From an uncultured archaeon (GTDB taxonomy: Archaea; Altiarchaeota; Altiarchaeia; IMC4; QMZM01), in NCBI GenBank assembly GCA_964592095.1, contig CAZQER010000002.1, positions 1 through 41,173 of the forward strand: a DNA stretch of 41,173 bases. The letters run 5' to 3'. Under the pieces are notes generated by a model. The model saw nothing but the letters and a program-made list of their open reading frames with translations, was not told the DNA's origin and made no database searches. The stretch's first letter is position 1, and the number at the start of each line of letters is the position of its first letter. Below are positions 893-36,468 of the stretch, in pieces. The translations under genes and the position numbers were made by a program.

Positions 893-2851
893 ATGAGTCT
901 ATGTAATTCCCAAAAATCAAAAAGACTTAATTCACTTGTCAATCTCAAGCCAAGTTCAATTGGGCTTAATATATGTAAGTATTTGGAATGGATTATCCCT
1001 AACGGCACTGGTGGTTATTCGTCATCTACAATAATTAATATGAACACTGCTTTATATCATGGACTTTTGGTGTCTTCTGATAAAAATTTGAATAAGAAGG
1101 TATTTTTACAGAAATTGGATGAAGAAATAATAACAGAAAATGAATCCATTTCAGTGGCTACTGATATCTATGAAGGTAACAACATATCAGATGGTTGGAG
1201 GTATCTTCACAATTTTGATTTTACCTTTAATTCTGTTTTCTTTGACTATTCTGTAGAGGGTGTGGATATATGTAAATCTATAATCCCCATTCATTGTAGA
1301 AATGCTGTAATTGTTTGTTATACTGTAAATAATAGATTGGATAAAGATATAATCTTTAGGATAACACCCTATATGAACATCAGAAATGTTAATGAAACTG
1401 GAAAGAAATCATTAAATGATATGATACCGAGAATTTTTTCAGAGAATATTACAGGTATTTATTCCTCAAATGGTTATTTAGTTATTTATTCAGATATTGC
1501 CAAATGTTACAAAATTCCAAAAGAAAAGAGATGGAGGCGAATAGTTTTATATCCGGAAGATAATTCAATAGAATATCTATGCTCCCCTGTTTACTTTTCT
1601 ATAGATATAGAACCACATGAGATACTTAAATTTAATACAATTGCAATAGGTTATGGAACAGAGGAAAAAACAGCAAAGGTTTTCAAGGAATTGTTTTATA
1701 AATCAAAAGAACATGTTAGGTCATCAAGATTTATTTCCTCGGGAAAGGGGGTATCTATAATGTCGCTACTTAATTCTGTAGATAATTTCATCATAAATGT
1801 AAACTCCAAAAAGACAATAATCTCCCGTTATCCCTATTCAGAAGATAAGGGTAGAGAGGCTATGATTTCCCTTCCGGGATTTACTCTAATAAATAATAGA
1901 TACAGAGATGCAGAGCTTATATTAGAGCATTATCTCAATCATGCAGATTATAGAGGAATACCAAGCATTTTCAGGGATGGAAAGCCAGAATATTTTGATA
2001 TAGATACATCCCTATGGCTTATTGATAGATTTTATAAGTATGTAAAATGTGTTGGTGAGGAAAAGGCAAAGGGGATATTACATACATATTGGTGGACACT
2101 GAAAAGCATTATCAATAACTATATAGAAAGAGAAAAGGATGGTCTTTTGAGACATAAAGGGGGAACATGGATGGATATACCACAAATAAAGAAGAAAAGG
2201 GTTGATGCAGTTGAGGTTCAGGGATTGTGGTATAATACATTGAGAATAATGGAAAAATTTAGAGAGATAATGGGTGATGATTATGAGGATGTGGAATATT
2301 CCCATATCTATAAAAGATTTGAAGATAACTTTATGGATAGATACTGGACAGGTAGTTTTTTAGCAGACTCTGCAAATGATGATGCACTGAGACCAAATCA
2401 ATTAATTCTGATATCATTAGATTTTAATGTTGTTAATAAAACATTGTCAAAGAAGATATTAACTGCTGTTAAAAGGGAACTTCTCACAAATTATGGGTTA
2501 AGAAGTCTAACACCGGAGGATGATAGGTATGTAGGAAAATGGAATAACGATATTAAAAATAAGTTCAATGGGAATGTTTTTCCATGGTTATTGGGCGCAT
2601 ATATTGATGCATATGTAAAAACATATGGATATACAAAAAGGTTACAGAATTTTCTTGAACCATTATTTGAGTTACATATAAAAGATGCCGCGATTGGAAC
2701 AATATCGGAGATGTTCCAGGGTGACCATCCAAACAGACCAATAGGTTCTATTTCATATTCGTGCTCCATAGCAGAATTACTTAGGGTTCACTTTGAGCAT
2801 GTTATGGGTAATTTTACTCTTACTTCTCCTAAGATATCCAACAATAAATAA
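893..2851 (+). CDS. archaeal-type glycogen debranching enzyme (amylo-alpha-1,6-glucosidase, GDE_C family)
   Basis: The 652-aa size and layout fit the archaeal GDE family. Segments such as GREAMISLPGFTL, DTSLWLIDRF, VQGLWYNTL, LRPNQLILISL, YGLRSLTP, GNVFPWLLGAY and GTISEMF are typical of the (alpha/alpha)6 amylo-1,6-glucosidase domain. Confidence 0.8.
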   Translation: MSLCNSQKSKRLNSLVNLKPSSIGLNICKYLEWIIPNGTGGYSSSTIINMNTALYHGLLVSSDKNLNKKVFLQKLDEEIITENESISVATDIYEGNNISDGWRYLHNFDFTFNSVFFDYSVEGVDICKSIIPIHCRNAVIVCYTVNNRLDKDIIFRITPYMNIRNVNETGKKSLNDMIPRIFSENITGIYSSNGYLVIYSDIAKCYKIPKEKRWRRIVLYPEDNSIEYLCSPVYFSIDIEPHEILKFNTIAIGYGTEEKTAKVFKELFYKSKEHVRSSRFISSGKGVSIMSLLNSVDNFIINVNSKKTIISRYPYSEDKGREAMISLPGFTLINNRYRDAELILEHYLNHADYRGIPSIFRDGKPEYFDIDTSLWLIDRFYKYVKCVGEEKAKGILHTYWWTLKSIINNYIEREKDGLLRHKGGTWMDIPQIKKKRVDAVEVQGLWYNTLRIMEKFREIMGDDYEDVEYSHIYKRFEDNFMDRYWTGSFLADSANDDALRPNQLILISLDFNVVNKTLSKKILTAVKRELLTNYGLRSLTPEDDRYVGKWNNDIKNKFNGNVFPWLLGAYIDAYVKTYGYTKRLQNFLEPLFELHIKDAAIGTISEMFQGDHPNRPIGSISYSCSIAELLRVHFEHVMGNFTLTSPKISNNK

Positions 2852-3148
2852 TGCAGATGTCAGTAGTAAAATTGTAAGAAGAGATGTGATGAGATTTATA
2901 GATATCCCAAATAATGAATTTAGAATTAGGATTGATAGAACTACAACAGAAATACTCAAACCTATTGATAGTGCAATTCTTTCAAGCATGTCTATCTCCC
3001 TGTCTATCCTATCTTTTGGAAAGAGAGCAAATGTTAATGCAAATCCAGGAAGAAATAAAACCAATATGAGACCTATTATTATTCTAATTATATTTACAAT
3101 AATTCCTATAATATTACCTATAATATCCATAATCTCTATGATTTCCAT
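2777..3148 (-). CDS. small membrane protein resembling the N-terminal part of DUF1616 archaeal membrane proteins
   Basis: 123 aa with about 3 TM helices. The LFLPGFALTFALFP...ERIALSIGLSISVVVL pattern recalls the DUF1616 N-terminus. Its 3' end overlaps the convergent GDE gene by 75 nt. Confidence 0.5.
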   Translation of the reverse strand: MEIIEIMDIIGNIIGIIVNIIRIIIGLILVLFLPGFALTFALFPKDRIDREIDMLERIALSIGLSISVVVLSILILNSLFGISINLITSLLTILLLTSALFIVGYLRRSKSKITHNMLKVNPK

Positions 3149-3174: not shown

Positions 3175-4713
3175 TTATGGCTCATGCTTGTAAATAAAAT
3201 TTCTATTTCCCTCATCTGAGTATACCTCCCTTAGGAATTCACACTTAATTTTTCCCTTGGAGAATATATAATCGGCATTTAATTCATTGATTATCTTTTC
3301 CTTTCCCTTACAGTCTTCATTGAAAAACATATTTGCCTTCATGTTAATCCTTCTATCTGCAGATAATCTCGCACGCTCCAACGATATTACCCTTCTTTCA
3401 CCTATAAGCCATATAGGTCTGGAGTAAATGGAAAATGTTAATACAACCGAATCCTTTGGTGTATTCTTAAAATATTCAATGCTATTAATATCATCGTCGT
3501 GGATTATATGAGGAAGTTTGTCTCTATAATAAAAGGATGAATCCATCTGTATAAATAATATAATCATTATTACAAGTAAAACCATAATCTTTATTTTACC
3601 AGATTTTGTAAATTTTGTAATAAAGTCATATAAATAAAATAAACCAATACCTGCCATCATAAGTGCTATTTCAGATGTATAGATAAAAAGCCTTCTAAAT
3701 GGGCACAAAAAGAGTTTACCTGTTAGATAATATTGAAGTATAAAAGGCATTAATGAAATAAAGGCTACTGGAAGTATTCTCATCTTCTTATCCTTTACTA
3801 CGCCACATATACAAATCAATGCAGGTATGATAGCAATATATCCGAGAAAGGTATCATAATGAAATCTCGTTGGATATGGTTCGTCTGAAAATGTAAGTAT
3901 TCTTATTATTTTGTATATAAATTTAAATTCATTATCAATGAAAACAAATCTTAATAATAGTATTAACAACACAATAATGCCTATAAAAATCTTCTCTTTA
4001 TTCTTTTGTATGAGATCGGGATTGAGTATAAGATAGAGAAGGAATATTGGTATGAGGATTATTGTTGATGGTGGATGAGATAATGTTACTTGGATGAATA
4101 TTATCAGAAGCATTATATCCCATGCAGAAATCCTTCTTTCAGAATTAATGGCTTTAAGAAACAGAAGCAGAAATAATGGAAGCATGGACATACCATAAGC
4201 CACTGGAACCAAAAACCATAAACCGAGAAGTGTCCAATTGCTTTTTATAGTTAAAACAAAGATCGATGAAAAAATACCGGCTAAATCGCTCTTTGTCAAA
4301 TACCTTACCAAAATAAATACATTCAGTGCAAGGATAAACCCTATTATGGTGGGGATAATAACATCCAAATAAAGTGGCTTTATTCCAGTTAATAATGCAA
4401 TTTCAACCAAAAATAGATGATAATTCAACTCCCAGTTCATATCATAAAAATTTTCCCCCAGAAATGGATTATAAGATATAATTCTCTCTTTTTTTATTAT
4501 CTCATTTGCTATCGCAATATGGTCCCATGAATCAAAGTGGTATGGTAATGTATAGTAAAGAAGTTTTCCTTTCTTAACTGCTTCACAGAGCAGACCATAG
4601 AAAAAAAGAGGATAATCCTTATTGAATACAACATAATCCAATCTGATATTAACATTAATCAAAAATAAACTAAGTAAAAACAGGAATACCAAAATTGAAA
4701 ATTCTCTTTTCAT
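3175..4713 (-). CDS. polytopic membrane protein, GT-C-like putative glycosyltransferase (uncertain)
   Basis: 512 aa with more than 10 predicted TM helices, followed by a ~120-aa soluble C-terminal domain. The first loop is acidic (HFDSWDH), as in GT-C enzymes. It lies 26 nt upstream of the DUF1616-like gene on the same strand. No STT3 WWDYG motif is present. Confidence 0.45.
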   Translation of the reverse strand: MKREFSILVFLFLLSLFLINVNIRLDYVVFNKDYPLFFYGLLCEAVKKGKLLYYTLPYHFDSWDHIAIANEIIKKERIISYNPFLGENFYDMNWELNYHLFLVEIALLTGIKPLYLDVIIPTIIGFILALNVFILVRYLTKSDLAGIFSSIFVLTIKSNWTLLGLWFLVPVAYGMSMLPLFLLLFLKAINSERRISAWDIMLLIIFIQVTLSHPPSTIILIPIFLLYLILNPDLIQKNKEKIFIGIIVLLILLLRFVFIDNEFKFIYKIIRILTFSDEPYPTRFHYDTFLGYIAIIPALICICGVVKDKKMRILPVAFISLMPFILQYYLTGKLFLCPFRRLFIYTSEIALMMAGIGLFYLYDFITKFTKSGKIKIMVLLVIMIILFIQMDSSFYYRDKLPHIIHDDDINSIEYFKNTPKDSVVLTFSIYSRPIWLIGERRVISLERARLSADRRINMKANMFFNEDCKGKEKIINELNADYIFSKGKIKCEFLREVYSDEGNRNFIYKHEP

Positions 4714-9765: not shown

Positions 9766-9839
9766 GCCTCCGTAGCTTAGTTCGGTATAGCGGCGGACTT
9801 GTAATCCGCAGGTCGAGGGTTCAAATCCCTCCGGAGGCT
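9766..9839 (+). tRNA. tRNA-Thr (anticodon UGU)
   Basis: Manual cloverleaf: acceptor GCCTCCG/CGGAGGC, anticodon arm GCGGA-CTTGTAA-TCCGC, T arm GAGGG-TTCAAAT-CCCTC, discriminator T. There is no encoded CCA and no intron. It forms a GC-rich island in AT-rich DNA. Confidence 0.9.
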
Positions 9840-9841
9840 AC

Positions 9842-10303
9842 CTATATAAACCTCACAAGTTGAATAATATCCTCTCCCTTCTTTGTGTAGTTTCTGAAAT
9901 AACCTTCCTTTTCAAATCCATTACTTAGGAAGAATTTTAACCCCTCCTTATTTACAGCCTTAACCTTTGCAATTACTCTCCTAATACCTAACTTCTTTAG
10001 AAAAATAATTGCATTATTCAGCAAAATTGTTCCTATTCCCACATTTCTGAATTTCTTCCTTACACATATTGGTCCAATTTCACCCCTACCTACATTGCTA
10101 TAAAACAAAATGCCAACAAAACCAACTATTGTATCATTTACTTCAGCCACGAGGAATTTAAAATCAAATCTCTGAGAAATATTTATAATAAAATCCTTAT
10201 TGATGCCTATATCCTCAAAATTTTCAGCAGATTCATTATGCAATTTAAGTATATATTCAACATCTGAAGGCACAAATTCTCTAATAGAAATTTTTTCATT
10301 CAT
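9842..10303 (-). CDS. GNAT family N-acetyltransferase
   Basis: 153 aa. It has the acetyl-CoA binding motif A (VRKKFRNVGIGTILL) and the typical GNAT beta-strand layout. Confidence 0.8.
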   Translation of the reverse strand: MNEKISIREFVPSDVEYILKLHNESAENFEDIGINKDFIINISQRFDFKFLVAEVNDTIVGFVGILFYSNVGRGEIGPICVRKKFRNVGIGTILLNNAIIFLKKLGIRRVIAKVKAVNKEGLKFFLSNGFEKEGYFRNYTKKGEDIIQLVRFI

Positions 10304-12125: not shown

Positions 12126-12785
12126 ATGAAAAAACTTTTTATACCGGCATATTCCTTAAAGAGTCCAGAAAGGGCTGTAAAAAGGGCATTAAGGCTTCTA
12201 AAAGGTTATAAAACTATAGGTATCATTACCACTGCCCAACATATAAATCAGATATCTATGGTAAAAAGAATTCTTGAGAGAGAAGGGCACAATGTTATTG
12301 AGGGTGGGCAGATACTTGGTTGTAATATAGAATCTGCCAAAAAAATTGAAAATAGTGTGGATGTATTTCTATATATCGGCTCCGGGAGATTTCATCCCTT
12401 GGGTGTTGCATATGCAACAAGAAAGCCAGTAATTACGGCAAACCCCCTCTCTGATTTTGCAGATACAATATCAAAGGAGGAGATACTACAGTTAAAAAGG
12501 AAAAGAAGGGCTAGAATCCTCAGGGCATATAATGCCAATGTTTTTGGAATACTTGTCTCACTAAAGAATGGACAATTTAACTTAGAGAGAGCATTTCAGA
12601 TTAAGGATAGAATGGAAAGAGCAGGTAGGAGAGCATTTATCTTTGCTGGCTCTGAAATAAACAATGATAATATACTTCCATTTAGAGTAGAGGCTTGGGT
12701 TAATACCGCGTGTCCAAGGATAGTGGATGATTACTTTGATAAACCTGTTTTGAATGAAGGAGAGATTGATATACTGATAGAGTAA
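12126..12785 (+). CDS. dph2: Dph2 (2-(3-amino-3-carboxypropyl)histidine synthase) lacking the N-terminal domain
   Basis: The 219 aa align by eye to domains 2 and 3 of archaeal Dph2. Matching segments are IGIITTAQHINQ, GQILGCN, YIGSGRFHPLG, FGILVSLKNGQ and WVNTACPRIVDDY. There is no room upstream for domain 1, because the acyP stop lies 2 nt before the ATG. Confidence 0.75.
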   Translation: MKKLFIPAYSLKSPERAVKRALRLLKGYKTIGIITTAQHINQISMVKRILEREGHNVIEGGQILGCNIESAKKIENSVDVFLYIGSGRFHPLGVAYATRKPVITANPLSDFADTISKEEILQLKRKRRARILRAYNANVFGILVSLKNGQFNLERAFQIKDRMERAGRRAFIFAGSEINNDNILPFRVEAWVNTACPRIVDDYFDKPVLNEGEIDILIE

Positions 12786-12809: not shown

Positions 12810-13583
12810 TCACTTGAATAGATTTAACATTTCTTCCTCTGTAAAGTGGAGATTTGCAGGTATGATTATGGAGTGTGGCGGCCCACCAAAATTAAAATCT
12901 ATTAAATCATTTAGAGTTCCAGTCTTTATCGTGGTATCATTTCCTAGTCTTGCAACGCCAACAATAAGTGTTTCATTATCAATAACATTTTCCCTTTTTA
13001 TTTTTTCCATTTTCAAAAGAATTTCAATACCTTCATTGATTGTCATAAATCTCTTTTCTTCATATTTTATATCTAAAAGAATTAATGTATGCATTCCTCC
13101 TCTCAGATTTTCCTTTATCACATTATATGGAGATGTTGGAAAATATTTCTTTTCTGGAAATGGTAGGGTGGTTGTTTTGCCAAACTTGTATATGTGCAAA
13201 CCGGTTTCAGCAATGGCAGAATACACAGATGATGAGTGTATTACCTTGACCTTTATACCCATTTTATTTGCTCTCAATAGAATATCTGCGTGGGTGGTTG
13301 CAATTAGAGGGTCGCCACAAACAAGTAATGCGACATCTTTTTTTGAAGAATTATAAAGGATATTATCATCCGGATGCCCCTCTAAATCCTCCCTGTCTAA
13401 AATGTTAATCCTTTTTCCAACCCAGTTTTCAATAGTCTTCAAATCACCATTAAAAAAACTTGTATATAATTCGGCATAAATTCTATCAACCCTCTTTAGT
13501 ATCTCAACACCCTTAATACTAATATCCCCTTCATCATAAATGCCCAACCCAATGAGATATAACATATTAATAATTAGAAACAC
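12810..13583 (-). CDS. dphB: diphthine synthase
   Basis: 257 aa. The tetrapyrrole-methylase-fold N-terminus MLYLIGLGIYDEGDISIKG, plus LVCGDPLIATTH and the overall length, are typical of archaeal diphthine synthase. It is convergent with dph2. Confidence 0.9.
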   Translation of the reverse strand: MFLIINMLYLIGLGIYDEGDISIKGVEILKRVDRIYAELYTSFFNGDLKTIENWVGKRINILDREDLEGHPDDNILYNSSKKDVALLVCGDPLIATTHADILLRANKMGIKVKVIHSSSVYSAIAETGLHIYKFGKTTTLPFPEKKYFPTSPYNVIKENLRGGMHTLILLDIKYEEKRFMTINEGIEILLKMEKIKRENVIDNETLIVGVARLGNDTTIKTGTLNDLIDFNFGGPPHSIIIPANLHFTEEEMLNLFK

Positions 13584-13641: not shown

Positions 13642-16600
13642 TTAGGCGTGTATATTCTCTTTCAACCACTGTATTAATGCATCTCCTGCCTCTTTTGTAT
13701 CTGAGGCTAAATAACCTGCAACCATAATCTTGTTTCCATCCCTTCTGACAATGAACTTGTCTGGTGCCGCCTCTAACTCCTCTTTTGTTACAGTACACAT
13801 TCCATTCACTGCAGGACCTCCCACTATTATCAGATTCTTGGTTTCATCGGCACCTATCTCAGAGACTACTAAATTGCCCACTGGATTAACTGTAACCTTT
13901 GTGTATGTTACTTCTCCACCTTCACCTGCCTCCATGGTAAAGTTGCTTACCTTGAACTCACAGCACCCTGCAGTTATTGTCTTACCGACATCAGCATCTG
14001 TTATCTCATCGTATGTTACCTTTTCTTTCTCCTCTGTACCGATGAAGTATGTAGCATCTACTGCCTTCTGTGGGTGACATACCTCCACAGATGTAATCTT
14101 TCTGTCTGTACCCCAGTCTATTGTGTATGTATCGCCTCCTTCTGGCACGATCAGAACACTATCATCCTCATCATTCATAACCATTATCTCATCTGTTTTA
14201 TAATACGAGCCCTCCTTTAACATACAACCATCGAATGTTACATCAGTACAATTCCATGTGTTCGTCACATTGTTAAATGAACAGTAGGTTTCATTTACCT
14301 CACAAACTGTTGTGTAAACACCAATTGAATGTCCATAGTCTTGTTCATCACCTGGTGTTTCATCCTCTGGTTGATCTCTGTCTGACATATCTATCACTAC
14401 CGTTTCGCCATCCTCATTCTTTGTGACTATTAGTAAATCGTCATTATCATTATCATTGTTCATATTCACACCATTACCTGAAGTTGCGGCAGTACCACAA
14501 CTCTTCAGAGCATACTGACTGAGGTCAAGTTCCCTTACTGTCCACAGAGAGAATTTACTTCCCTCGTTTTCAAAATCATCAAGTGGGTGTTCTGATGACT
14601 CTATTGTGGAACGAGGTGTGGCTATATCTGGGTCAACAAGCAATAGAATCTGTGACTGTACACCACGAGTATTCCATGGGTCTTTTTTACTTAGTATTAT
14701 TGAATCATCATCATCGTTAAATAGCATTATCATATTCACACCATTAACTGTCACATTAGCCCAGTATATGTCCTCTGCGGAAACTGTAATGTTTTCATCG
14801 TTAGAGAAACCATCACAGTTATTATCAAATGCATCCGAAAGTGCTACTGTTCTCAGTGTTATTTCATCTATATCCTCACAACTACAACTCTGCAGGTTTC
14901 CGTCGTCTAGATTGGGATCACACCTCGTAAAATTACCTGTTGAGCCTCCTGTCATATTACACATATGATACAATGTAATTGTCTTCTTTGATCCAGACCC
15001 CACTGGTTTTAACTTTACCTCCACACTATCATCATTTTTATCTGTTGTTCCCCCGTCATCCTTCGTTGAACCAAGATACTGATACATCTTGCCTCCAATC
15101 AGGAAGGCATCTTCATCACCACTCTCTGTGAATGGTCCGTTATCAAGTCTCAAATCATATCTGTTGTGTTTATCATTCGTCATACTTACTACAACCTGAT
15201 AAGGCTCTTCTCCCTCTGATATCACTATGTTTCCTTCACCCGCTCCAGAGCATTCAGCCTCTCTGAATGAGGATGTCATATATCCCTTGAATATCAACTT
15301 GAATTCTCCAGGTAGATTGAATTCATCTCCAACCCTCAATGCATGGAATATAGGATCACTCTGACTCTCATCTACATTCTTTACTAAGGTTACCGTTATA
15401 TTTGCAAGTACTAGGTCGTTAGTGTCATCTAAATTACTGTATTGGGTAATATCCTTTGCACAGTCACTGTCACTTTTACAATGAGCAGTATTAACATTTA
15501 CCTTCCAGCCTTCCCATGTGTTTCCACCTATGCTCAACTCCTCTCCATCTTCAAGAACCACTTGATTGCTGATATCATATACTATGATGGATGCTGTTTC
15601 AACACCACCGGATGATTCCGCATATACACCAGAAATCTCCAAATCATCTACCACTGCATTTGCCATCTTTGATATCTGTCTCTGCACCTCAGTACCATCT
15701 GGTTTCTGTATTGTCAGCAATATACCTGCTACAACATACTCTCCTGAATATATTAGGTGGTCAATCTTGAATTTGTATCCCTTGTACTCTGATGTGTATC
15801 CCTCACTTGTTATATCATCTAACCTGGTACCTTCAGCGAGGATTATCTTATCTTCACCCTCTATGTCCTTCACATAGTACTCCTTCCCAAAGAAGAGCAA
15901 CTTTCCTCTGTACTCAAAATCAACCCAATGATCACTGTCGCCTCCTCCACTTGTTAGTCTCTCCATTGGTATCCAGCCAGCCTCAAGTATATACTTTATA
16001 GCATTCTTCTTTATAGCCATCTCTAAGTACTCTGGGTCACGCTTACCAATACCGCTCTCATAGTACCATATATTGTCGTTGTTCACATAGAGTTTCTCCT
16101 CCATATCGTGGGATGGGTTCTCTAAGGCTTCCAAACACAGGTTATGACAGAACAGGCAGTGGATGTTATTGGATGTAAGGGTCTGCAGAATCGTTGCCTC
16201 GGCAAGTTGCTCCTTCTCGCATGTTATTGAATACTGTGTAAATCCGCCAGATTCATAGGTTTCTTCACCATCAAATTTGTAGTTACCTTCGGCACCACTC
16301 TGGCTATAGAAATCCTCTGATATTTTAACATCCTTAGTATCCTGCACATATTCACCGACAGCTCCTAATGCTGATGTCTCTATCAGTACCTTTCCTGTTG
16401 CAGCGGCACCTGCTCCACCCGCTGTTGCTGTCTCTTCCATGTACGCCAAATTACCTATGGTTGCAGCAATATTACCTGCAGTTACAAAATCGTCTGGTCC
16501 TCCGGCGTTTGCCTTTTCCCCAACCACTATCTGAACCTTTGGTACATAATTTGCATCATAGAAAAACCCCTTCTCAATTCCCGTGGTGTCCATTCCTGCA

Positions 16601-16695
16601 AGCACTGGTGTCGCAAGTGTTGCACCTATCATGGTAGCCCCAATTGCAACAGTACCTATCTTCTTAATATCTATGGATTTCAATTTCCTTATCAC
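13642..16695 (-). CDS. S-layer-like major surface protein, Cys-rich
   Basis: The signal peptide ...KKIGTVAIGATMIGATLATPVLAG and the C-terminal NLIIVGGPAVN...IMVAGYLASDTKEAGDALIQWL resemble Methanococcales/Thermococcales-type S-layer proteins. The protein is acidic with many N-x-S/T sequons and about 21 Cys. The listed GTG start sits inside the SD (GAGGTGAT). TTG at 16683-16681 (MKSIDIKKIG...) is the more plausible start. Confidence 0.7.
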   Translation of the reverse strand: MIRKLKSIDIKKIGTVAIGATMIGATLATPVLAGMDTTGIEKGFFYDANYVPKVQIVVGEKANAGGPDDFVTAGNIAATIGNLAYMEETATAGGAGAAATGKVLIETSALGAVGEYVQDTKDVKISEDFYSQSGAEGNYKFDGEETYESGGFTQYSITCEKEQLAEATILQTLTSNNIHCLFCHNLCLEALENPSHDMEEKLYVNNDNIWYYESGIGKRDPEYLEMAIKKNAIKYILEAGWIPMERLTSGGGDSDHWVDFEYRGKLLFFGKEYYVKDIEGEDKIILAEGTRLDDITSEGYTSEYKGYKFKIDHLIYSGEYVVAGILLTIQKPDGTEVQRQISKMANAVVDDLEISGVYAESSGGVETASIIVYDISNQVVLEDGEELSIGGNTWEGWKVNVNTAHCKSDSDCAKDITQYSNLDDTNDLVLANITVTLVKNVDESQSDPIFHALRVGDEFNLPGEFKLIFKGYMTSSFREAECSGAGEGNIVISEGEEPYQVVVSMTNDKHNRYDLRLDNGPFTESGDEDAFLIGGKMYQYLGSTKDDGGTTDKNDDSVEVKLKPVGSGSKKTITLYHMCNMTGGSTGNFTRCDPNLDDGNLQSCSCEDIDEITLRTVALSDAFDNNCDGFSNDENITVSAEDIYWANVTVNGVNMIMLFNDDDDSIILSKKDPWNTRGVQSQILLLVDPDIATPRSTIESSEHPLDDFENEGSKFSLWTVRELDLSQYALKSCGTAATSGNGVNMNNDNDNDDLLIVTKNEDGETVVIDMSDRDQPEDETPGDEQDYGHSIGVYTTVCEVNETYCSFNNVTNTWNCTDVTFDGCMLKEGSYYKTDEIMVMNDEDDSVLIVPEGGDTYTIDWGTDRKITSVEVCHPQKAVDATYFIGTEEKEKVTYDEITDADVGKTITAGCCEFKVSNFTMEAGEGGEVTYTKVTVNPVGNLVVSEIGADETKNLIIVGGPAVNGMCTVTKEELEAAPDKFIVRRDGNKIMVAGYLASDTKEAGDALIQWLKENIHA

Positions 16696-17930: not shown

Positions 17931-19025
17931 TTATTCTACTTTAAATCTCAAAATTGCTGCCTTTCCACCGAATGTATTCCATAATTGAAATCCTTCCTCA
18001 AAGTCATCAGAAACTATATCTACCTCTGTATTTGTATCCTTAGCCTTCTGATAGAGTTTGTCTATCGTTTCATCATCAAGATTTTCAGATATCAATAATA
18101 TATCAACTGCACCCATATCCAATGCCTTATCAACATCATCACCATATGCAACACTCTCCTGAGATGAGACGAGACCCTTAAGAAATCTCTGCATATGTGT
18201 TTTGTGTCTTACCATCTGCACATTACTTAAAACATCCTTTGATTTATCTATCAATTCCCTGATGCCAGATTCATCTGTGTATGTAATATCCTGAACTGCA
18301 ATAATCTTCTTTTTCAACTCATGATTAAGATAATTACCCTCAACAAAATCATCCTTTGTCCCTGCAGGTCCTCCTATTATTATACCCTTTAAATCCTTGA
18401 AATTTTCCAGAAATATTTTATTAGAATGTTCACCCACTCTAACCTTAAATTCATGGGATTGCTCTCTAATCAATCTCTCAAATCTTCTATGAGACTGACC
18501 TCCAGCCCTATGCTTTCCAGTATATCCTGATGTAAGGTGTTTTAGTATAGTGTATCTGTTACCCTTCAATGTAGCAATTGTAGCCTCTTTATTATCTATT
18601 GCTATTAAACCATATACATCCTTTGGTTTTATTATCTCCTCCAATGGCTCTATTACAAACTCTTGGTCACATCTGTAGATTCTCACAGATATGGGTTCAG
18701 GGGGTTCAATTGACCATAATCTCAAATCCTGAACTCCTTCCTTCTCAGAAACATTTCCACAAAAAACAACGAGACCATTATCGGGTGTTTTTTTGAAAAG
18801 CCTTAAATGTTGTATTGTCTTCTCCAATGCATCTAATACATTCTTTCTTGTGGACTTGGATTTGATATTAGCTGCAGTTCCCTGTTCATCTACAAGTTGA
18901 TTAAGAACGTTGTTTATGTCATAACCTGCAGGTATATATATAGATATAAGCTCCGTGTGTCTTCCCTTTCTCCTCTTTAATTCATTTACAAGTCTCCTCA
19001 ACCTGTATTCATCCTTTGCTTCCAT
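17931..19025 (-). CDS. prf1: peptide chain release factor aRF1
   Basis: It has the NIKS codon-recognition motif (AANIKSKS) and the GGQ motif (HRAGGQSHRRFERL). The N-terminal YRLRRLVNEL...ELISIYIP is typical of aRF1. At 364 aa it is somewhat short for the family. Confidence 0.9.
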   Translation of the reverse strand: MEAKDEYRLRRLVNELKRRKGRHTELISIYIPAGYDINNVLNQLVDEQGTAANIKSKSTRKNVLDALEKTIQHLRLFKKTPDNGLVVFCGNVSEKEGVQDLRLWSIEPPEPISVRIYRCDQEFVIEPLEEIIKPKDVYGLIAIDNKEATIATLKGNRYTILKHLTSGYTGKHRAGGQSHRRFERLIREQSHEFKVRVGEHSNKIFLENFKDLKGIIIGGPAGTKDDFVEGNYLNHELKKKIIAVQDITYTDESGIRELIDKSKDVLSNVQMVRHKTHMQRFLKGLVSSQESVAYGDDVDKALDMGAVDILLISENLDDETIDKLYQKAKDTNTEVDIVSDDFEEGFQLWNTFGGKAAILRFKVE

Positions 19026-19860
19026 ATTTTATTTTTATAAATATTCTATCCAGATTAAACTCAAATGCAGTAATGGGTACTTCTAATCCAAAATTTTCTA
19101 TTACTATTGGATTTATTTCTCCAAAAAAACCAAAGCCTGTTCCAGCACACCTACCATCAATAAAGCTCCCATGTTCTAATTCTTTTATTTTATATTTTAC
19201 CCCGATATTATCAAGAAATCCAGTAACTATAGATTTTATTTCTGCATAGTTTGTTTTTGAATGAGCAATAGCAGCAGCTAATTTCATACTTTCATTTCCA
19301 TTTTGGTCTATGCAAAGTCCAGTCTCGAATATTCTTTGCGGATACTCCCTGTTCTTGTTATTTTCAAATACTGACATAAGAGATGGTAATAACCATGACC
19401 TTGCAACCGAATGTCTCAGAGATACTGGATTCTTTGTCTTTACCACATTCTCTCTTGATATATTCATTCTATCAAAAAGTTCATCCTCATTGGTCATAAT
19501 CAGGGTCATCACCTCCTGAAAATTAAAGCCAAGCATTAACTCCCTTACAGCTGAGTAAAATTTCTCAGATTTATCTTTTTCACCTATTGTGGACAGTTCT
19601 GGTATTTCTGGATTGAAATTATTATAGTTGTAAGCTATAGCCACATCCTCAACCAGATCTATGGGATGTAAGATGTCTGTTCTGTAGGCTGGGATTAAAA
19701 TCTCAAATTTATTATTATTTAATATTTTAACACCGAAACGCATCTTCTCCAATAATTTTTTGATATCTTTTAGTCCCAAATTTAAACCCAAGAGTTTATT
19801 TACATACCTTAAATCCAATTTCATCAATTTTGGTGAAAGATTGGGAGTTGTTGTTTCCAT
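19009..19860 (-). CDS. pheT: phenylalanyl-tRNA synthetase beta subunit, C-terminal half (B5 plus catalytic-like core)
   Basis: The 283 aa start at the B5 domain (LDLRYVNKLLGLNLGLKDIKKLLEKMRFG...ILIPAYRTDILHPIDLVEDVAIAYNYNNF). They continue through the class-II-like core to the normal C-terminus (EINPIVIENFGLEVPITAFEFNL). The B1-B3/4 region is absent here and is encoded at 34728-35522. Confidence 0.85.
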   Translation of the reverse strand: METTTPNLSPKLMKLDLRYVNKLLGLNLGLKDIKKLLEKMRFGVKILNNNKFEILIPAYRTDILHPIDLVEDVAIAYNYNNFNPEIPELSTIGEKDKSEKFYSAVRELMLGFNFQEVMTLIMTNEDELFDRMNISRENVVKTKNPVSLRHSVARSWLLPSLMSVFENNKNREYPQRIFETGLCIDQNGNESMKLAAAIAHSKTNYAEIKSIVTGFLDNIGVKYKIKELEHGSFIDGRCAGTGFGFFGEINPIVIENFGLEVPITAFEFNLDRIFIKIKYGSKG

Positions 19861-19946
19861 TTTGTATTTTTTGATATTTGTAGTATTTTATAGTATTGTA
19901 TTTGAAGTAGAAGGATAAAAGTAATACAATAAACAAATGGGATACA

Positions 19947-20660
19947 TCAATTATATTTTTCAATTTTATATACGATAACATCATTTGTTCTTGTATATAT
20001 TGAGTAATTGATCCTATCTGCTATTTCATCAATGGTATCTCCAAATATGACAAGATAATCAAAACCCTCTTGGATTTTGTTATTATTCAAATAACAAGAT
20101 ATATTTTGAATCTCACATGCTATACATTCTCCATTTTTTGATAATCCGTAATATGCATAGATTAGAAAGGGATACATAATAATTAGGAACAAGTTGGCCA
20201 AGCAAACAACCATACAGTTGTAATAATCAATATACCAAGATATTGTGAATGTCTCACATATTTATAAACACCATCTGTTACCAATTCACCATTTGAATAG
20301 TAAATCTTTTCCCATCCAGAAACAATTATAATCCGTGAAAATATTGTGAGTATGGCTGCTATCAGAGATGTCATTAAGAGATTATATGAACGACCTGTAA
20401 GGGAGAATGTAAATGCTATTGATGGTTCATTATATGTAGATGGAATATACAAAATGATGATAACAGATATATTGATAATGGAATGCCAAACATCTCGGTG
20501 AATAGTGCAACTATAAATGCTATGTAGATACTATGGGTTTTCTTCCATGAATACCCTTTGATTGGGTGAACCATCAAGAATATTATAAAAATTGAAAATA
20601 GGATTATATAGAAAAGAACAAGACTCCATTGATGTTTTATGATACTCTTAGTTGATTTTT
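19947..20660 (-). pseudogene. frameshifted PEMT/ICMT-like membrane methyltransferase
   Basis: Family-typical segments lie in three different frames. The first is ...ALFTEMFGIPLSIYLLSS (stop at 20418-20416). The second is ...ELVTDGVYKYVRHSQYLGILIITTVWLFAWPT (ORF 20183-20452). The third is LFLIIMYPFLIYAYYGLSK... (ORF 19947-20213). No ATG is visible at the expected N-terminus. Confidence 0.6.
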
Positions 20661-20805: not shown

Positions 20806-20878
20806 TGGGGCCGCCGAGATTTGAACTCGGGTTACCAGCGCCCCGGGCTGGAAGGATGCCAAGCTACCCTACGGCCCC
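20806..20878 (-). tRNA. tRNA-Pro (anticodon GGG)
   Basis: The reverse complement folds as acceptor GGGGCCG/CGGCCCC, anticodon arm CCAGC-CCGGGGC-GCTGG, T arm CCGAG-TTCAAAT-CTCGG and discriminator A. There is no encoded CCA. Position 33 appears to be C rather than U. Confidence 0.8.
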
Positions 20879-31110: not shown

Positions 31111-34038
31111 TTATTTGACATCACTCAATCTCTTTCTTCTCTCTAAGAGATTTTCCAATTCTACTTCAATATCAATAACTCTCTTTTCATACTCCTCCAC
31201 AAGATTTCTAAGTGTTGCCTCATCTATCTGTCTTTTATGATACTTAAATCTTGCTTTTGAAATCATTCTTTCAACCTTATCTCTCTCCATCTCTAATGCA
31301 GTAATCCTTTCTCTCTCCCTTCTCGAGAGTGTTGGTCTTAATCTCTTTCTTTCCTCCTTGATTACTTCTTTAATCCTCTCCTTCTCTTTATAAATCTCCT
31401 CAAATCTCTCTATATCCTCTAAAAGCTCTTTATATTCACCCTTTTCATCACTTTCTAATATCTGTTTTTTTGCCAATGAATACCATGGAGCAAGGGATGT
31501 TTTTACACTCTTGATTGCACTCATAAAGTCATGCATCATAATATTTCTCTTTTTTCCACCCTCCAGAGCCTCTCTCCAAGGTATCTCTGCAGCCCTGTCA
31601 CAAATCTCCTTTATATCTGCAGATGAATAACCCTCCGTTAATTTAGAAAGCCTTTCAAAATCAACACTTCTATCAATTGGCATATCCCTCGTATGAACCT
31701 TAAAGATTTCCAAGCGTGCCCTCTCATCTGGTCTTGACACCAGAATCTTTTTTGAGAATCTTCCTGCCCTTTTTATTGATGGGTCAAGTGTCCATGGAGA
31801 GTTTGTGGCCGCAAGGACCATCAATTTTTTGTTCTTTTTTGAGTTCTCCAATTCCTCCAGCAGGATATCAACAATTCTTCTTTCCATTCCTGTGATATCC
31901 AAATCTCTTCTTACTGCTATTGCATCTATTTCATCAAAAAACAGAATTGCAGGAGCATTTTTATTCGCTTTCTCAAATATCTCTCTAATGTTCTTTTCAG
32001 ACCTGCCTTCCTCACTTGATATGATATCTGTTATCTTAACATCAAAAAATGATACATTACATTCACCTACCGTAGCCTTTGCTATGTATGTCTTTCCACA
32101 CCCCGGAGGTCCGTAAAGAAGGATAGAGCCAGTTTCCTTTTTGAACTCCTTTGCCAAATCCTCCCTTATGAGAGGATATACAATATTCTTCCTTATCTCC
32201 TCCTTTACATCCTCAAGATTACCAACATCGGCAAATGTGATTTCCGGTTTTCTTATCTTGTCAATCCCACCCCCATATTTCAATATATACTCGGAAAAGT
32301 CTTTAAAAATATCTCTCTCTCCGCTTTCTCTTATTTCTTTTGCAGCTATCTTAAACCATGGTATTAGGGATGATTTCTGTTTACTCAGAGCATCCATGAA
32401 ATCCTTCGTTGTAATATTTCTCTTTTTTCCACCCTCCAGAGCCTCTCTCCAAGGTATCTCTGCAGCCCTGTCACAGATAACCTTTATATCTGATGATGAG
32501 TAACCCTCTGTTAACTCAGCCAATTTTCTAAAATCTATATCATCCGATACGGGAAGATTTCTTGTATGTATCTCAAAGAGTTTTATGCGTGTTTCAAAAT
32601 CAGGAGGTGGTATAAATATATGCTTTGTAAACCTTACCGATCTTCTCAATGCCGGGTCTATATTCCAGGGAACATTTGTTGCAGCCATTACCAGTACATC
32701 CTTATCCAAGCTATCAATTCCGTCCATCTCCATAAGAAACTGATCAATCTCCATCTTCTCTGCGTATGACCTTCCCTTAACTCTTCTTCCACCTATTGCA
32801 TCTAATTCATCGAAGAATATTATGGCGGGTGAATTCCTGTTTGCATCTACAAATACCTCATGAAGGCTTTTTGCACCCTCCTCAACACCCTTTGATATTA
32901 TATCACTTATGTTCACATTAAAGAATGTAACTCCACATTCACCTACCGTAGCCTTTGCTATGTATGTCTTTCCACACCCCGGAGGTCCGTAAAGAAGAAT
33001 GGCTCCTCCACCTCTCTTACCAAATTCCTTAGCAAGTTCTGGTTTTGTTAGGGGATATACAATATTCTTCCTTATCTCCTCCTTTACATCCTCAAGATTT
33101 GCAACATCATCGAAATTTATGGTTACCTCCTCCACAGGTACAGTTCCCTTTGAACCTATTGCTGTTCCAATTGCTATCGGTCTGAGAGGTTCACCCTTTT
33201 TAACCTTTACATCTACTATTCCTATACGGCATACTGGAAAGTGCATTTTTGGTTTTATCTCCATGTGCTCATCTACCCTCTTTCTTATGGTTTGTATATA
33301 TGGCAAGAATGTAACACCCTCTAACCCAACCCTTGCATCAAATAAAAGACTGAGAATATCACTAATCCTTTCAATAGAGTATTTAATCTTATCCCTCTCA
33401 TAGGATTCAAGAATTGTGTTTGTTTCCTGTAAAAATGATGATAAATCCCATCCAGGATCTCTAAATTTTGGAATGTTATAATTAATCTTTACCCTCTTCT
33501 TTACAAGGATTTCATCATCCTCGGGATTAAACTCACTCCACAATGTTGAAATTAACACCTTCCATCTTGGTTTAAATGTCTTTATTAATCCCGTAGTTTC
33601 TAAATCTAAAATTGCATCTCTATCCAATTCATCATAAAATATCCAATCGGTCCTCATCAATTTTCCAAGTGTTTTTATGGATATATCTGGTAAATCTATT
33701 ATTCTCTTTAGTATGTCATATCTATCTATTCTTACAGACTCCATAGGCAATCTATGGGGGAAATGATAGATATCCAATGATGTTAAATCAACATAAAAGA
33801 AATTATCTATAACCTTGTAGATTGTTTCAGTGGTTATAAAACCCTTGTGTTCTTCCTCTTGGCGAGATATCTTAAATCTCGCTAATGGTCTGTATGCTTT
33901 TTTAATCTCTATCTTTTCTCTACCGATTGCCCTTTTCAAAGCACCTATCGGAGATTCCTCTGTAGCCCTTAACTCGCAGATTTTCTCAGCACTTTCGGAC
34001 ACGGCAAATGATTTTGTCACTACCCTTTTAATTTTCAT
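31111..34038 (-). CDS. atypical tandem AAA+ ATPase: novel ~300-aa N-domain, two Vps4/meiotic-clade-like AAA modules and a charged coiled-coil tail
   Basis: There are two Walker A sites (LLYGPPGCGKTY, twice) and two Walker B sites (IIFFDELD, ILFFDEID). ATNVPWNIDPALRR and ATNSPWTLDPSIKR resemble Vps4/katanin-type rather than Cdc48-type second regions. The N-terminus has no Cdc48 double-psi barrel signature. The last ~110 aa are K/E/R-rich. Confidence 0.75.
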   Translation of the reverse strand: MKIKRVVTKSFAVSESAEKICELRATEESPIGALKRAIGREKIEIKKAYRPLARFKISRQEEEHKGFITTETIYKVIDNFFYVDLTSLDIYHFPHRLPMESVRIDRYDILKRIIDLPDISIKTLGKLMRTDWIFYDELDRDAILDLETTGLIKTFKPRWKVLISTLWSEFNPEDDEILVKKRVKINYNIPKFRDPGWDLSSFLQETNTILESYERDKIKYSIERISDILSLLFDARVGLEGVTFLPYIQTIRKRVDEHMEIKPKMHFPVCRIGIVDVKVKKGEPLRPIAIGTAIGSKGTVPVEEVTINFDDVANLEDVKEEIRKNIVYPLTKPELAKEFGKRGGGAILLYGPPGCGKTYIAKATVGECGVTFFNVNISDIISKGVEEGAKSLHEVFVDANRNSPAIIFFDELDAIGGRRVKGRSYAEKMEIDQFLMEMDGIDSLDKDVLVMAATNVPWNIDPALRRSVRFTKHIFIPPPDFETRIKLFEIHTRNLPVSDDIDFRKLAELTEGYSSSDIKVICDRAAEIPWREALEGGKKRNITTKDFMDALSKQKSSLIPWFKIAAKEIRESGERDIFKDFSEYILKYGGGIDKIRKPEITFADVGNLEDVKEEIRKNIVYPLIREDLAKEFKKETGSILLYGPPGCGKTYIAKATVGECNVSFFDVKITDIISSEEGRSEKNIREIFEKANKNAPAILFFDEIDAIAVRRDLDITGMERRIVDILLEELENSKKNKKLMVLAATNSPWTLDPSIKRAGRFSKKILVSRPDERARLEIFKVHTRDMPIDRSVDFERLSKLTEGYSSADIKEICDRAAEIPWREALEGGKKRNIMMHDFMSAIKSVKTSLAPWYSLAKKQILESDEKGEYKELLEDIERFEEIYKEKERIKEVIKEERKRLRPTLSRRERERITALEMERDKVERMISKARFKYHKRQIDEATLRNLVEEYEKRVIDIEVELENLLERRKRLSDVK
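31539..33099. repeat. three perfect intragenic repeat pairs between the two AAA modules
   Basis: Three pairs are exact by direct comparison. 31539-31602 equals 32412-32475 (64 nt). 32059-32121 equals 32935-32997 (63 nt). 32174-32220 equals 33053-33099 (47 nt). The offsets of 873, 876 and 879 nt are all in frame. Intervening DNA is clearly diverged. Confidence 0.9.
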
Positions 34039-34262: not shown

Positions 34263-34709
34263 ATGGTTGAAGAAAAAATTGGAGCAGAGAGTAGTGAGGA
34301 ATTGATAGAAAAGGCTGAGGAAGAGTATGAGGTAAAAACTGAGGCAAAAACTAAGACTAAGACAGAAAGCGATGATAATCTTATGGCCGCGATAGCTCAT
34401 GCAGGAATAATCATTACAGTGATTGTTGCATTGATTATCTGGCTTATACAGAAGGATAAATCCAAATATGTTGAGTTCCAGGCGAAACAGGCTTTGGTCT
34501 ATCAGATAGTGGTCGCTGTTTTGGGCTTTGTTCTGAGCATTGTTATATTCATTTTGGGAATAGTGACACTTGGAATAGGATTTATTCTATACTTCCTGTT
34601 ACCGCTTTTAGGGTTAGCAGCAGTAATCTATGGCCTCTACGGCGCCTATGAATGCTATAATGGAAGGGATTTCAGATATATCTGGATTGGAGATATGCTG
34701 TCTAAATAA
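34263..34709 (+). CDS. DUF4870-like small membrane protein
   Basis: An acidic N-terminal tail is followed by AAIAHAGIII...IWLIQKDKSKYVEFQAKQALVYQ and 3-4 TM helices, as in the DUF4870 family. Confidence 0.55.
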   Translation: MVEEKIGAESSEELIEKAEEEYEVKTEAKTKTKTESDDNLMAAIAHAGIIITVIVALIIWLIQKDKSKYVEFQAKQALVYQIVVAVLGFVLSIVIFILGIVTLGIGFILYFLLPLLGLAAVIYGLYGAYECYNGRDFRYIWIGDMLSK

Positions 34710-34727: not shown

Positions 34728-35522
34728 TTATCTTTTAAGCAGTTTTATGCTTTGTATTTCACCTCCTCTGTCAGCTATGGAAGTAACAATGATGTTCAAT
34801 GCCTGATTAACTGCAACATTATCAAGACCAGTCACATCTATGAAGATATCCTCTGTGTCCTCACCTACTCTGGTAAGTTCTCCATTTATTATTGGTGGAA
34901 ATGACAAAACCCTGTTGTATTTATCAACTATTATTGGATATCTTTTCAATCCTGATAGAGTCCATTTATATTGAATTCCCTTTGGATGTCTCTCAAGAAT
35001 CTCTCTTAGATTTAATTCCTCTTTCATATCCAGTGGAACAAATCTTATATCATCTGGTTTTATGGCTTTGTATGTGAACGGTCCTTCTATTTTTTTCATA
35101 TCATGTATGCCTATAGCAACCTTCTTCCTGTTTCTTCCATGAGTAATATGAAGCTTTTCTTGAAGATTCATTAACGAAACCAATCTTTTTTCATTTAGTG
35201 AAAGATTTCTAATTACGGCACCAACTATATAAGGTCTAACATTATTGACAGATTCTTCTATGAGAATTTTAATTCCAGAATCAGTAATATTATATTCCTT
35301 GAATCCAGTCTCAATCTCAAGAAAGCCTTTCAATGCCCTTACAAATCCCTCCACTGAAAGCAGGTCTGGTCTGTTTGGGAATACCTCCATAACCAATCTC
35401 TCATTATCAATATCCTCTAAATCCACACCAAGCATTGATATCTTTTCTTCTATGTCATCTATTTTGTATTTATTTCCCAACAAATGATTAATCTCTCTAA
35501 GATCAAACTCAACCGTAGGCAT
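34728..35522 (-). CDS. pheT: phenylalanyl-tRNA synthetase beta subunit, N-terminal half (B1 plus B3/4 editing region) as a stand-alone gene
   Basis: MPTVEFDLREINHLLG...EVFPNRPDLLSVEGFVRALKGFLEIETG is the typical archaeal PheT N-terminus. The B3/4-like region is VRPYIVGAVIRN...KVAIGIHD...LSFPPIINGELT...IFIDVTG...ADRGGEI. A stop follows residue 264, where B5 would begin. The gene starts 16 nt after the radA stop. Confidence 0.85.
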   Translation of the reverse strand: MPTVEFDLREINHLLGNKYKIDDIEEKISMLGVDLEDIDNERLVMEVFPNRPDLLSVEGFVRALKGFLEIETGFKEYNITDSGIKILIEESVNNVRPYIVGAVIRNLSLNEKRLVSLMNLQEKLHITHGRNRKKVAIGIHDMKKIEGPFTYKAIKPDDIRFVPLDMKEELNLREILERHPKGIQYKWTLSGLKRYPIIVDKYNRVLSFPPIINGELTRVGEDTEDIFIDVTGLDNVAVNQALNIIVTSIADRGGEIQSIKLLKR

Positions 35523-35538
35523 TCTATCTTTATAATTT

Positions 35539-36468
35539 CTAATCCATAACCCCCCTTCCCGTTATCTTGAATACACACTCCCCCTCTGGAAGATTTGGGG
35601 AATCTATTAATTTGGCAATTCTCCGTTCCCCTTTACCCTTTCTGAGATATATTCTAAATGTTGCAGTATGTCCCACCACATGTCCACCAATGGGTTCGGT
35701 TGGATCGCCAAATAGAATATCGGGTCTTGCCATTACCTGATTTGTTACAACAACTGCAATATTATGGAGATCCGATATCTTTCGCTGCAGTAAATGAAGG
35801 AATCTGTTCAATTTTTGTTGCCTCTCAGCCAAACTTCCTCTTCCCGTGTATTCTGCTCTAAAGTGAGATGTTAGAGAATCAACAACCAATAATTTTGTAT
35901 TGTATTCCTCGGCAATTTCAGATGCCTTTTCTGCAAGAAGAATCTGGTGGTCTGAATTGTATGCCCTTGCTACCTGAATATTTTTTAATGCTTCATCACC
36001 ATCAATACCCTTTCCCTCGGCCATCTGTATTATCCTCTCGGGTCTGAATGTATTTTCTGTATCAATATATATTGCAGTTCCGTTCAACCCACCTCTCTTC
36101 ACTGGTAATTGAACATTTACTGAAAGTTGATGAGCAATTTGTGTTTTTCCAGAACCAAACTTTCCAAAGAGTTCTGTTATAGCCTGTGTTTCAATACCAC
36201 CCCCAAGAAGCGCATCCAATTCCTTACTACCCGTACTAAGTTTCCCAACTGCCTCCCTCCTCCTCTTGACATCCAAACCACTCTCAAAACCCATATCAAT
36301 ATTCTCCTGTGCATTATTGATTAATTTTATCGCTACTGCCTCTCCAAGCCCAACATCCTTTAATTGACCTATCGATGCCGTTGCAATTGATTCCACTGTG
36401 GAGAATCCAGCCTCTCTGAGTTTTTCTGCAACCTTTGTTCCTACGCCTGGTAAGTCTTCTATATTCAT
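35539..36468 (-). CDS. radA: DNA repair and recombination protein RadA
   Basis: It has an N-terminal HhH ([20 protein letters not shown]), Walker [10 protein letters not shown], Walker [13 protein letters not shown] and the C-terminal [18 protein letters not shown]. At 309 aa there is no intein. Confidence 0.92.

Follow-up and report, generated by a model that had tools for sequence, protein, structure and literature searches.

The window, which is the whole 41,173-nt stretch of DNA analyzed here, carries two separate genes that each encode part of the beta subunit of an archaeal PheRS (Table 1). The product of the first gene, the pheT N-half, covers positions 1–262 of the 551 positions in the archaeal pheT model TIGR00471 (pheT_arch) with an E-value of 1e-98 and 331 bits, above the cut-off of 282.65. 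Pfam detects PhetRS_B1 (E-value 1.2e-6, above its cut-off) followed by B3_4 (E-value 1.3e-10), and the protein aligns to residues 2–267 of 2CXI, a fragment of the P. horikoshii PheRS beta subunit (E-value 6.6e-57). The C-terminus of the N-half lies four residues past model position 262, i.e., immediately before B5. The product of the second gene, the pheT C-half, covers positions 269–550 of the same model (E-value 2.4e-82) and scores 277 bits, just below the cut-off. It contains a B5 domain at residues 13–79 (E-value 7.5e-21) and the catalytic-like tRNA_synthFbeta domain at residues 86–270 (E-value 8.8e-34), and it aligns to residues 272–348 of 2CXI and to residues 301–586 of human PheRS beta (3L4G_B). 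The domain order B1, B3/4, B5 and catalytic-like module is complete across the two ORFs and is not found in a single polypeptide of ~550 aa.

Table 1. Positions of the pheT halves, their neighbors and other features of the window.
Feature	Coordinates	Strand	Product	Evidence or context
pheT N-half, B1 and B3/4 editing domain of archaeal PheRS beta	34728..35522	-	264 aa	TIGR00471, Pfam, 2CXI
pheT C-half, B5 and catalytic-like module (B6/7) of PheRS beta	19009..19860	-	283 aa	TIGR00471, Pfam, 3L4G_B
radA	35539..36468	-	309 aa	Pfam Rad51, E-value 1.5e-95; upstream of N-half
DUF4870 (PF09685) membrane protein	34263..34709	+		Pfam E-value 9.6e-19; convergent, 18 nt from N-half stop
CDC48-like double AAA+ ATPase	31111..34038	-	975 aa	Pfam AAA twice and AAA_lid_3; downstream of N-half
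aRF1 (peptide chain release factor 1)	17931..19025	-	364 aa	Immediately downstream of C-half
TATA-like element ctataaaata	19884..19893	-		~25–33 nt upstream of C-half ATG; read from the sequence
Three short overlapping ORFs	19947..20577	-	53, 89 and 88 aa	Just upstream of C-half
tRNA-Pro(GGG)	20806..20878	-		Flanked by the ICMT-like remnant and the acetolactate synthase gene
Probable surface-layer protein	13642..16695	-	1017 aa	Weak S_layer_C match over nearly whole length
TP_methylase-family gene	12810..13583	-		Adjoins the Dph2 piece on the opposite strand
C-terminal piece of Dph2	12126..12785	+	219 aa	6BXM residues 94–311 of 327; Pfam Diphthamide_syn positions 66–292/302
tRNA-Thr(TGT)	9766..9839	+		
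ORF with later part of DUF6541	3175..4713	-	512 aa	
ORF with start of DUF1616/DUF6541	2777..3148	-	123 aa	Just upstream of the 512-aa ORF

The break in pheT

The two halves lie on the same strand, N-half first, with 14,867 nt and more than ten genes between them, and both are far from the window ends. A tblastn of a full-length PheT (P0246, 551 aa) against the window resulted in two matches only, which are contiguous and non-overlapping. Residues 1–259 match positions 35522–34749, and residues 262–547 match positions 19875–19039. We also counted the residues of the linker between the conserved glycine of the RGG motif and the conserved proline of the TPDL motif. With the N-half and C-half joined, this linker (window G253 to P270) has 16 residues, compared with a mode and a median of 17 in 93 intact PheTs. 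There is thus no loss, duplication or insertion at the junction, which leaves no room for an intein that might join the halves after translation. Neither an N- nor a C-fragment of an intein was found at the break, where there is no extra sequence and Pfam shows PheT domains only. No third copy of pheT, intact or fragmentary, was found in the 41-kb window, and pheS was not found in the window either. The analysis confirms a genuine gene fission, in which pheT is cut at the B3/4–B5 boundary and the halves sum to a complete subunit.

Much of this had been proposed in a sequence-only reading of the same DNA. That reading described the 264-aa ORF as a B1 and B3/4 half ending before B5, and the coverage of TIGR00471 (1–262) and the Pfam domains agree. 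Its second piece, a separate 283-aa gene for B5 and the core 14.9 kb away on the same strand, is likewise supported by TIGR00471 (269–550) and Pfam. The claim that 264 + 283 aa make a full-length PheT with neither overlap nor gap is borne out by the alignment to P0246, and the position of both halves agrees with its view that a contig end is not the cause of the split. It had named an intact copy of pheT as evidence that would make the two ORFs degenerate paralog fragments, and the window holds none. Its term "stand-alone editing half" is correct as a description of a gene.

The two halves are not equally visible in annotations. Among homologs in NCBI records, N-half proteins are named "phenylalanine--tRNA ligase subunit beta" and C-half proteins (P0122–P0240) "hypothetical protein". 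The latter label is consistent with the bit score of the C-half, 277, which falls below the TIGR00471 cut-off of 282.65. In GCA_014727915.1 (locus L002, 10001–11017; WJMO01000006.1) the C-half was called as a 338-aa protein, but its similarity to the window protein does not begin until locus position 10208. An over-extended start codon call is the probable source of the first ~68 residues.

Genomic neighborhoods of the two halves

A gap of 16 nt separates the stop codon of radA from the start of the N-half. The sequence-only reading placed the editing half "right after radA", which is correct here but not as a general feature, as no radA was found within 10 kb of the N-half in seven related loci (L001, L003–L008). 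The gene that converges on the N-half from the other side encodes a DUF4870 membrane protein, and a homolog of it directly follows the N-half in L001, L004 (a weak partial match) and L008. A CDC48-like ATPase is found 1–2 kb downstream of the N-half in 6/7 Altiarchaeota-type loci, with 40–73% identity. The CDC48-like protein in the window has ~330 N-terminal residues without a Pfam match before the first AAA domain, and a charged, coiled-coil-like tail at its C-terminus. Gene order in the window is shared with Altiarchaeales contigs (57–73% identity for the CDC48-like ATPase and 80% for PfkB). Judged by this shared order and by the names of its homologs, the host is an Altiarchaeota archaeon.

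The C-half is found in a different setting. It shares 17 nt with the start of aRF1, and the two genes are probably co-transcribed. The same order, pheT C-half then aRF1, is repeated in GCA_014727915.1 (eRF1_1, eRF1_2 and eRF1_3 domains, 66% identity). In that assembly a single contig of 536,761 bp carries both halves in the same orientation, with ~449 kb between them. Because each half has conserved neighbors of its own and the spacing runs from 14.9 kb to ~449 kb, the pheT halves are unlinked. In the other archaeal loci that were fetched, none of aRF1, the CDC48-like ATPase, DUF4870 or radA adjoins an intact pheT. A TATA-like element upstream of the C-half may be its own archaeal promoter, with a leaderless or short-leader mRNA, although such a motif could also occur by chance in a genome with a G+C content of ~34%.

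Several other features of the window are of note. The three short overlapping ORFs upstream of the C-half, of which the middle one has a partial match to the ICMT methyltransferase family (profile positions 18–66/95), look like the remains of a gene that has been frameshifted or is in decay, unless sequencing errors are the cause. Near one end of the window, the 123-aa and 512-aa ORFs with successive parts of DUF6541 may be another gene in two pieces or, alternatively, a frameshift. The 219-aa ORF at 12126 is, by its matches, the C-terminal piece of a split Dph2. Its N-terminal piece, expected at ~90 aa, was not among the ORFs of the window. Dph2 has been reported as the second split gene in all Altiarchaeales (Bird et al., 2016; PMC4975002). 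An acylphosphatase gene is found directly upstream of the Dph2 piece, and the TP_methylase-family gene that adjoins it is possibly Dph5.

Distribution and prior description of the split

Stand-alone halves are not peculiar to this genome. The best 120 homolog clusters of the N-half are all stand-alone proteins of 250–305 aa (median 265) with 53–100% identity, and the best 120 clusters of the C-half are stand-alone proteins of 262–338 aa (median 277) with 50–100% identity. A full-length protein is absent among the best 120 matches of either half. The source names of these clusters are all Candidatus Altiarchaeota or Altiarchaeales, with the exception of one N-half labeled Methanobacteriota. The window halves have 53–71% identity to proteins from named Candidatus Altiarchaeota/Altiarchaeales (including WOR_SM1_SCG, IMC4 and ex4484_2).

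We also scanned GTDB with one genome per species, which resulted in 54 loci. Matches to the N-half were extended in frame and each locus was searched for the C-half. In all seven Altiarchaeota-type loci (six from the scan, plus GCA_014727915.1) a stop codon is reached 1–13 codons past the N-half match, and no C-half was found within 10 kb. In the loci of other archaea (Thermoplasmatota, Thermoproteota, Aenigmatarchaeota, Woesearchaeota, Hadarchaeota, and Methanobacteriota) the gene is fused in frame wherever this could be judged (46/46), with 276–321 further codons that match the C-half. The sequence-only reading had called for a survey of related genomes, and the survey extends its split to every Altiarchaeota-type locus, with the same break.

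A search of 1.84 billion representatives returned almost only full-length proteins of ~550 aa, and the few short ones were checked. P0252 (268 aa), whose gene lies within a 2-kb contig and not at its edge, was considered as an independent split, but its closest relatives are the Altiarchaeota N-halves (52–56% identity), which places it in their clade as a divergent member. P0344 corresponds to a 555-aa protein (94% identity) in truncated form, and the proteins nearest to P0390 are full-length. No independent split of pheT in other lineages was found in this search. The pheT fission is a single, lineage-wide character of Altiarchaeota.

The sequence-only reading took a split at the B3/4–B5 boundary to be undescribed, but it has been published. 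Bird, Baker, Probst, Podar & Lloyd (2016, Front Microbiol 7:1221; PMC4975002) reported the same pheT split as a synapomorphy of Altiarchaeales. The window is a new example and not a discovery. The break before B5, the non-adjacent loci and the lineage are all alike in the two cases, and there is no difference in kind. The halves described by Bird et al. were on different contigs, where their relative placement could not be determined, whereas those of the window are on one contig, 14.9 kb apart. We did not find later literature that extends the published split. The points that go beyond Bird et al. are the relative placement of the halves, the conserved neighbors of each, and the invariance of the editing pocket over 120 clusters, described below.

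Other synthetases have been found in pieces. AlaRS of Nanoarchaeum equitans and LeuRS of Aquifex aeolicus are split between domains and are thought to reassemble from two polypeptides (cited in PMC4975002). These are different enzymes in different lineages, and the splits in Nanoarchaeota are tied to genome reduction of an extreme degree, a condition not shared by Altiarchaeota. The analogy to reduced, Nanoarchaeum-like archaea drawn in the sequence-only reading thus does not hold, as the host belongs to the Altiarchaeota, whose metabolism is near-complete and autotrophic (PMC4975002). The "domain swap" of Plasmodium and fungal PheRS (8S8B, 7BY6) was considered as a precedent and rejected; its hinge separates subdomains β1 and β2, near human residues 384–386, and is not at B3/4–B5.

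These comparisons bear on two other explanations of the split. One is that the ORFs are remnants of a paralog in decay, with the working subunit supplied by an intact pheT at another place in the genome. The genome sequence examined amounts to 41 kb, which is the point in favor of this explanation. We nonetheless consider it extremely improbable. Each half has 50–100% identity over 120 clusters, constant length and invariant catalytic residues, a pattern of purifying selection and not of decay. In addition to the lack of full-length proteins among the best matches, the split form is found in all seven species representatives of the Altiarchaeota type, and Bird et al. (PMC4975002) reported no intact copy, with pheT split in six of the seven Altiarchaeales genomes compared. 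The other explanation is that the split is an artifact of assembly or sequencing (a chimeric contig or a frameshift), or that a split intein joins the halves. We give this next to no credence. Metagenome contigs may be chimeric, and no other support for an artifact was found. Independent assemblies from numerous sites share the break point, each half is bounded by a start and a stop codon of its own and has its own conserved neighbors, and Bird et al. (PMC4975002) checked read support and three assemblers. An intein is opposed by the length of the joined linker and by the domain content described above. In practice, we treat the pseudogene, artifact and intein readings as excluded.

Editing pocket, predicted structure and possible function of a split PheRS

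Residues of the editing pocket were mapped from P. horikoshii to the window with the alignment of the N-half to 2CXI, and their conservation was counted over the 120 N-half clusters. Apart from N217, the P. horikoshii residues used are those that we take to be the editing residues of Sasaki and coworkers (2006). Six of the ten are invariant in 120/120 N-halves, i.e., Q126, E127, R137, S211, N217 and T236 (window Q121, E122, R132, S207, N213 and T231, respectively). The other four change conservatively: L168 (window L164; L/M/F), L202 (window I198; I/F/V/L), R223 (window R218; R/K), and D234 (window D229; D/E). Asn217 is the catalytic Asn of this archaeal/eukaryal pocket and, according to a review, the residue positioned at the ester bond. 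Such strict conservation of the pocket implies that editing is still under selection. B1, which has no role in editing, is also kept in all 120 N-half clusters. The sequence comparisons show that both halves are maintained by purifying selection, and both look functional.

We modeled an artificial fusion of the two halves in AlphaFold2 with an alignment of intact PheTs, which makes the model a test of compatibility and not of the strength of a non-covalent interface. The model is confident, with a pLDDT of 96.5 and a pTM of 0.80. A model of the fusion without an alignment had a pLDDT of 35 and was discarded. Superposed on 2CXI, which includes B1 to B5 and spans the break, the fusion model has a target-normalized TM-score of 0.94 and an rmsd of 1.7 Å over 347 columns. 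The query-normalized TM-score on human PheRS beta (3L4G_B) is 0.68. The break is predicted to lie in a loop of four residues that connects two strands. In the model, the two window proteins together make up a complete, undistorted beta subunit. Compared with the intact PheRS beta of archaea and eukaryotes (TIGR00471; 2CXI; 3L4G chain B), the modules, their order, the pocket residues and the modeled fold are alike, and the difference is that two polypeptides from unlinked genes take the place of one chain of ~550 aa.

These results show that pheT underwent fission in an ancestor of Altiarchaeota, in the short surface linker from the B3/4 editing domain to B5, and that both pieces were then retained as independent genes at unlinked, variable chromosomal positions. 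The halves probably reassemble non-covalently with PheS, with the catalytic-like module making the interface to the alpha subunit and B5 docking B1–B3/4. The N-half protein (betaN), the C-half protein (betaC) and alpha (PheS) would form an (alpha-betaN-betaC)2 PheRS with no covalent link between the two parts of beta. In this enzyme, betaC, consisting of B5 and the catalytic-like module, would provide the core four-helix-bundle interface with alpha and support aminoacylation. betaN, consisting of B1 and B3/4, would dock mainly on B5, as in 2CXI, and would hydrolyze mischarged Tyr-tRNA(Phe) like the intact enzyme. With betaN docked, the specificity for tRNA would come from the complex and not from the editing module itself. 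An isolated editing module of archaeal PheRS also deacylates the cognate Tyr-tRNA(Tyr), and a review questions whether cells could tolerate such a module in free form. This lack of specificity favors tethering to the enzyme.

The N-half can also be read differently. Free-standing trans-editing factors are separately encoded proteins with an editing domain of the aaRS type, and the N-half resembles them in this respect, with B3/4 plus B1. Examples of trans-editing include AlaX, YbaK/ProXp and the crenarchaeal ThrRS-ed. The crenarchaeal ThrRS is reportedly split into ThrRS-cat and ThrRS-ed, so that, as here, the editing function is encoded apart from the aminoacylation part. ThrRS-ed has an anticodon-binding domain and acts in trans, whereas the Altiarchaeota N-half consists of B1 and B3/4 only. 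By analogy, betaN could act in trans as a soluble Tyr-tRNA(Phe) deacylase and rebind mischarged tRNA after its release, with alpha and betaC as a minimal aminoacylating PheRS.

Several observations would fit such a factor. The halves are unlinked and in different transcription contexts, that of radA and the CDC48-like ATPase for the N-half and that of aRF1 for the C-half, at distances that vary from 14.9 to ~449 kb. Equal expression is therefore not built in, which would suit an independent factor. The strictly conserved editing pocket is also in line with it, as is the activity that the archaeal PheRS editing module retains once transplanted onto TyrRS. Moreover, a B3/B4 fold is active as a stand-alone deacylase in CtdA, a canavanyl-tRNA(Arg) deacylase (PMC10018355; PMC12268091). 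CtdA is bacterial, acts on another tRNA and amino acid, and has ~7–12% identity to PheRS B3/B4. It is a distant paralog, whereas the N-half is the orthologous half of PheT (E-value 1e-98 to an equivalog model).

On balance we regard a free deacylase as unlikely. In isolation the module accepts Tyr-tRNA(Phe) and the cognate Tyr-tRNA(Tyr) alike, and a free copy would risk futile deacylation. A Pfam search of the N-half revealed no recognizable tRNA-body or anticodon-binding domain. The retention of the non-catalytic B1 in 120 clusters is expected if B1 is required for docking, and the modeled packing of B1, B3/4 and B5 is the same as in the crystal fragment 2CXI. More broadly, it seems doubtful that the N-half acts independently at all, either as a trans-editing deacylase or in a new role tied to its DUF4870 and CDC48-like neighbors. 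If the N-half were independent, it would represent the first trans-editing factor found in nature to have arisen from PheRS in the same lineage.

Non-covalent reassembly with PheS is thus the reading that we favor. Recognition of the split also has practical value. When genes are counted in Altiarchaeota genomes, the halves may pass for a duplication of the single-copy pheT (PMC4975002), and in NCBI records the C-half goes unnamed while the N-half alone stands for PheT. For the PheRS family, the split pheT is a natural experiment on whether the editing module must be covalently attached to the enzyme.
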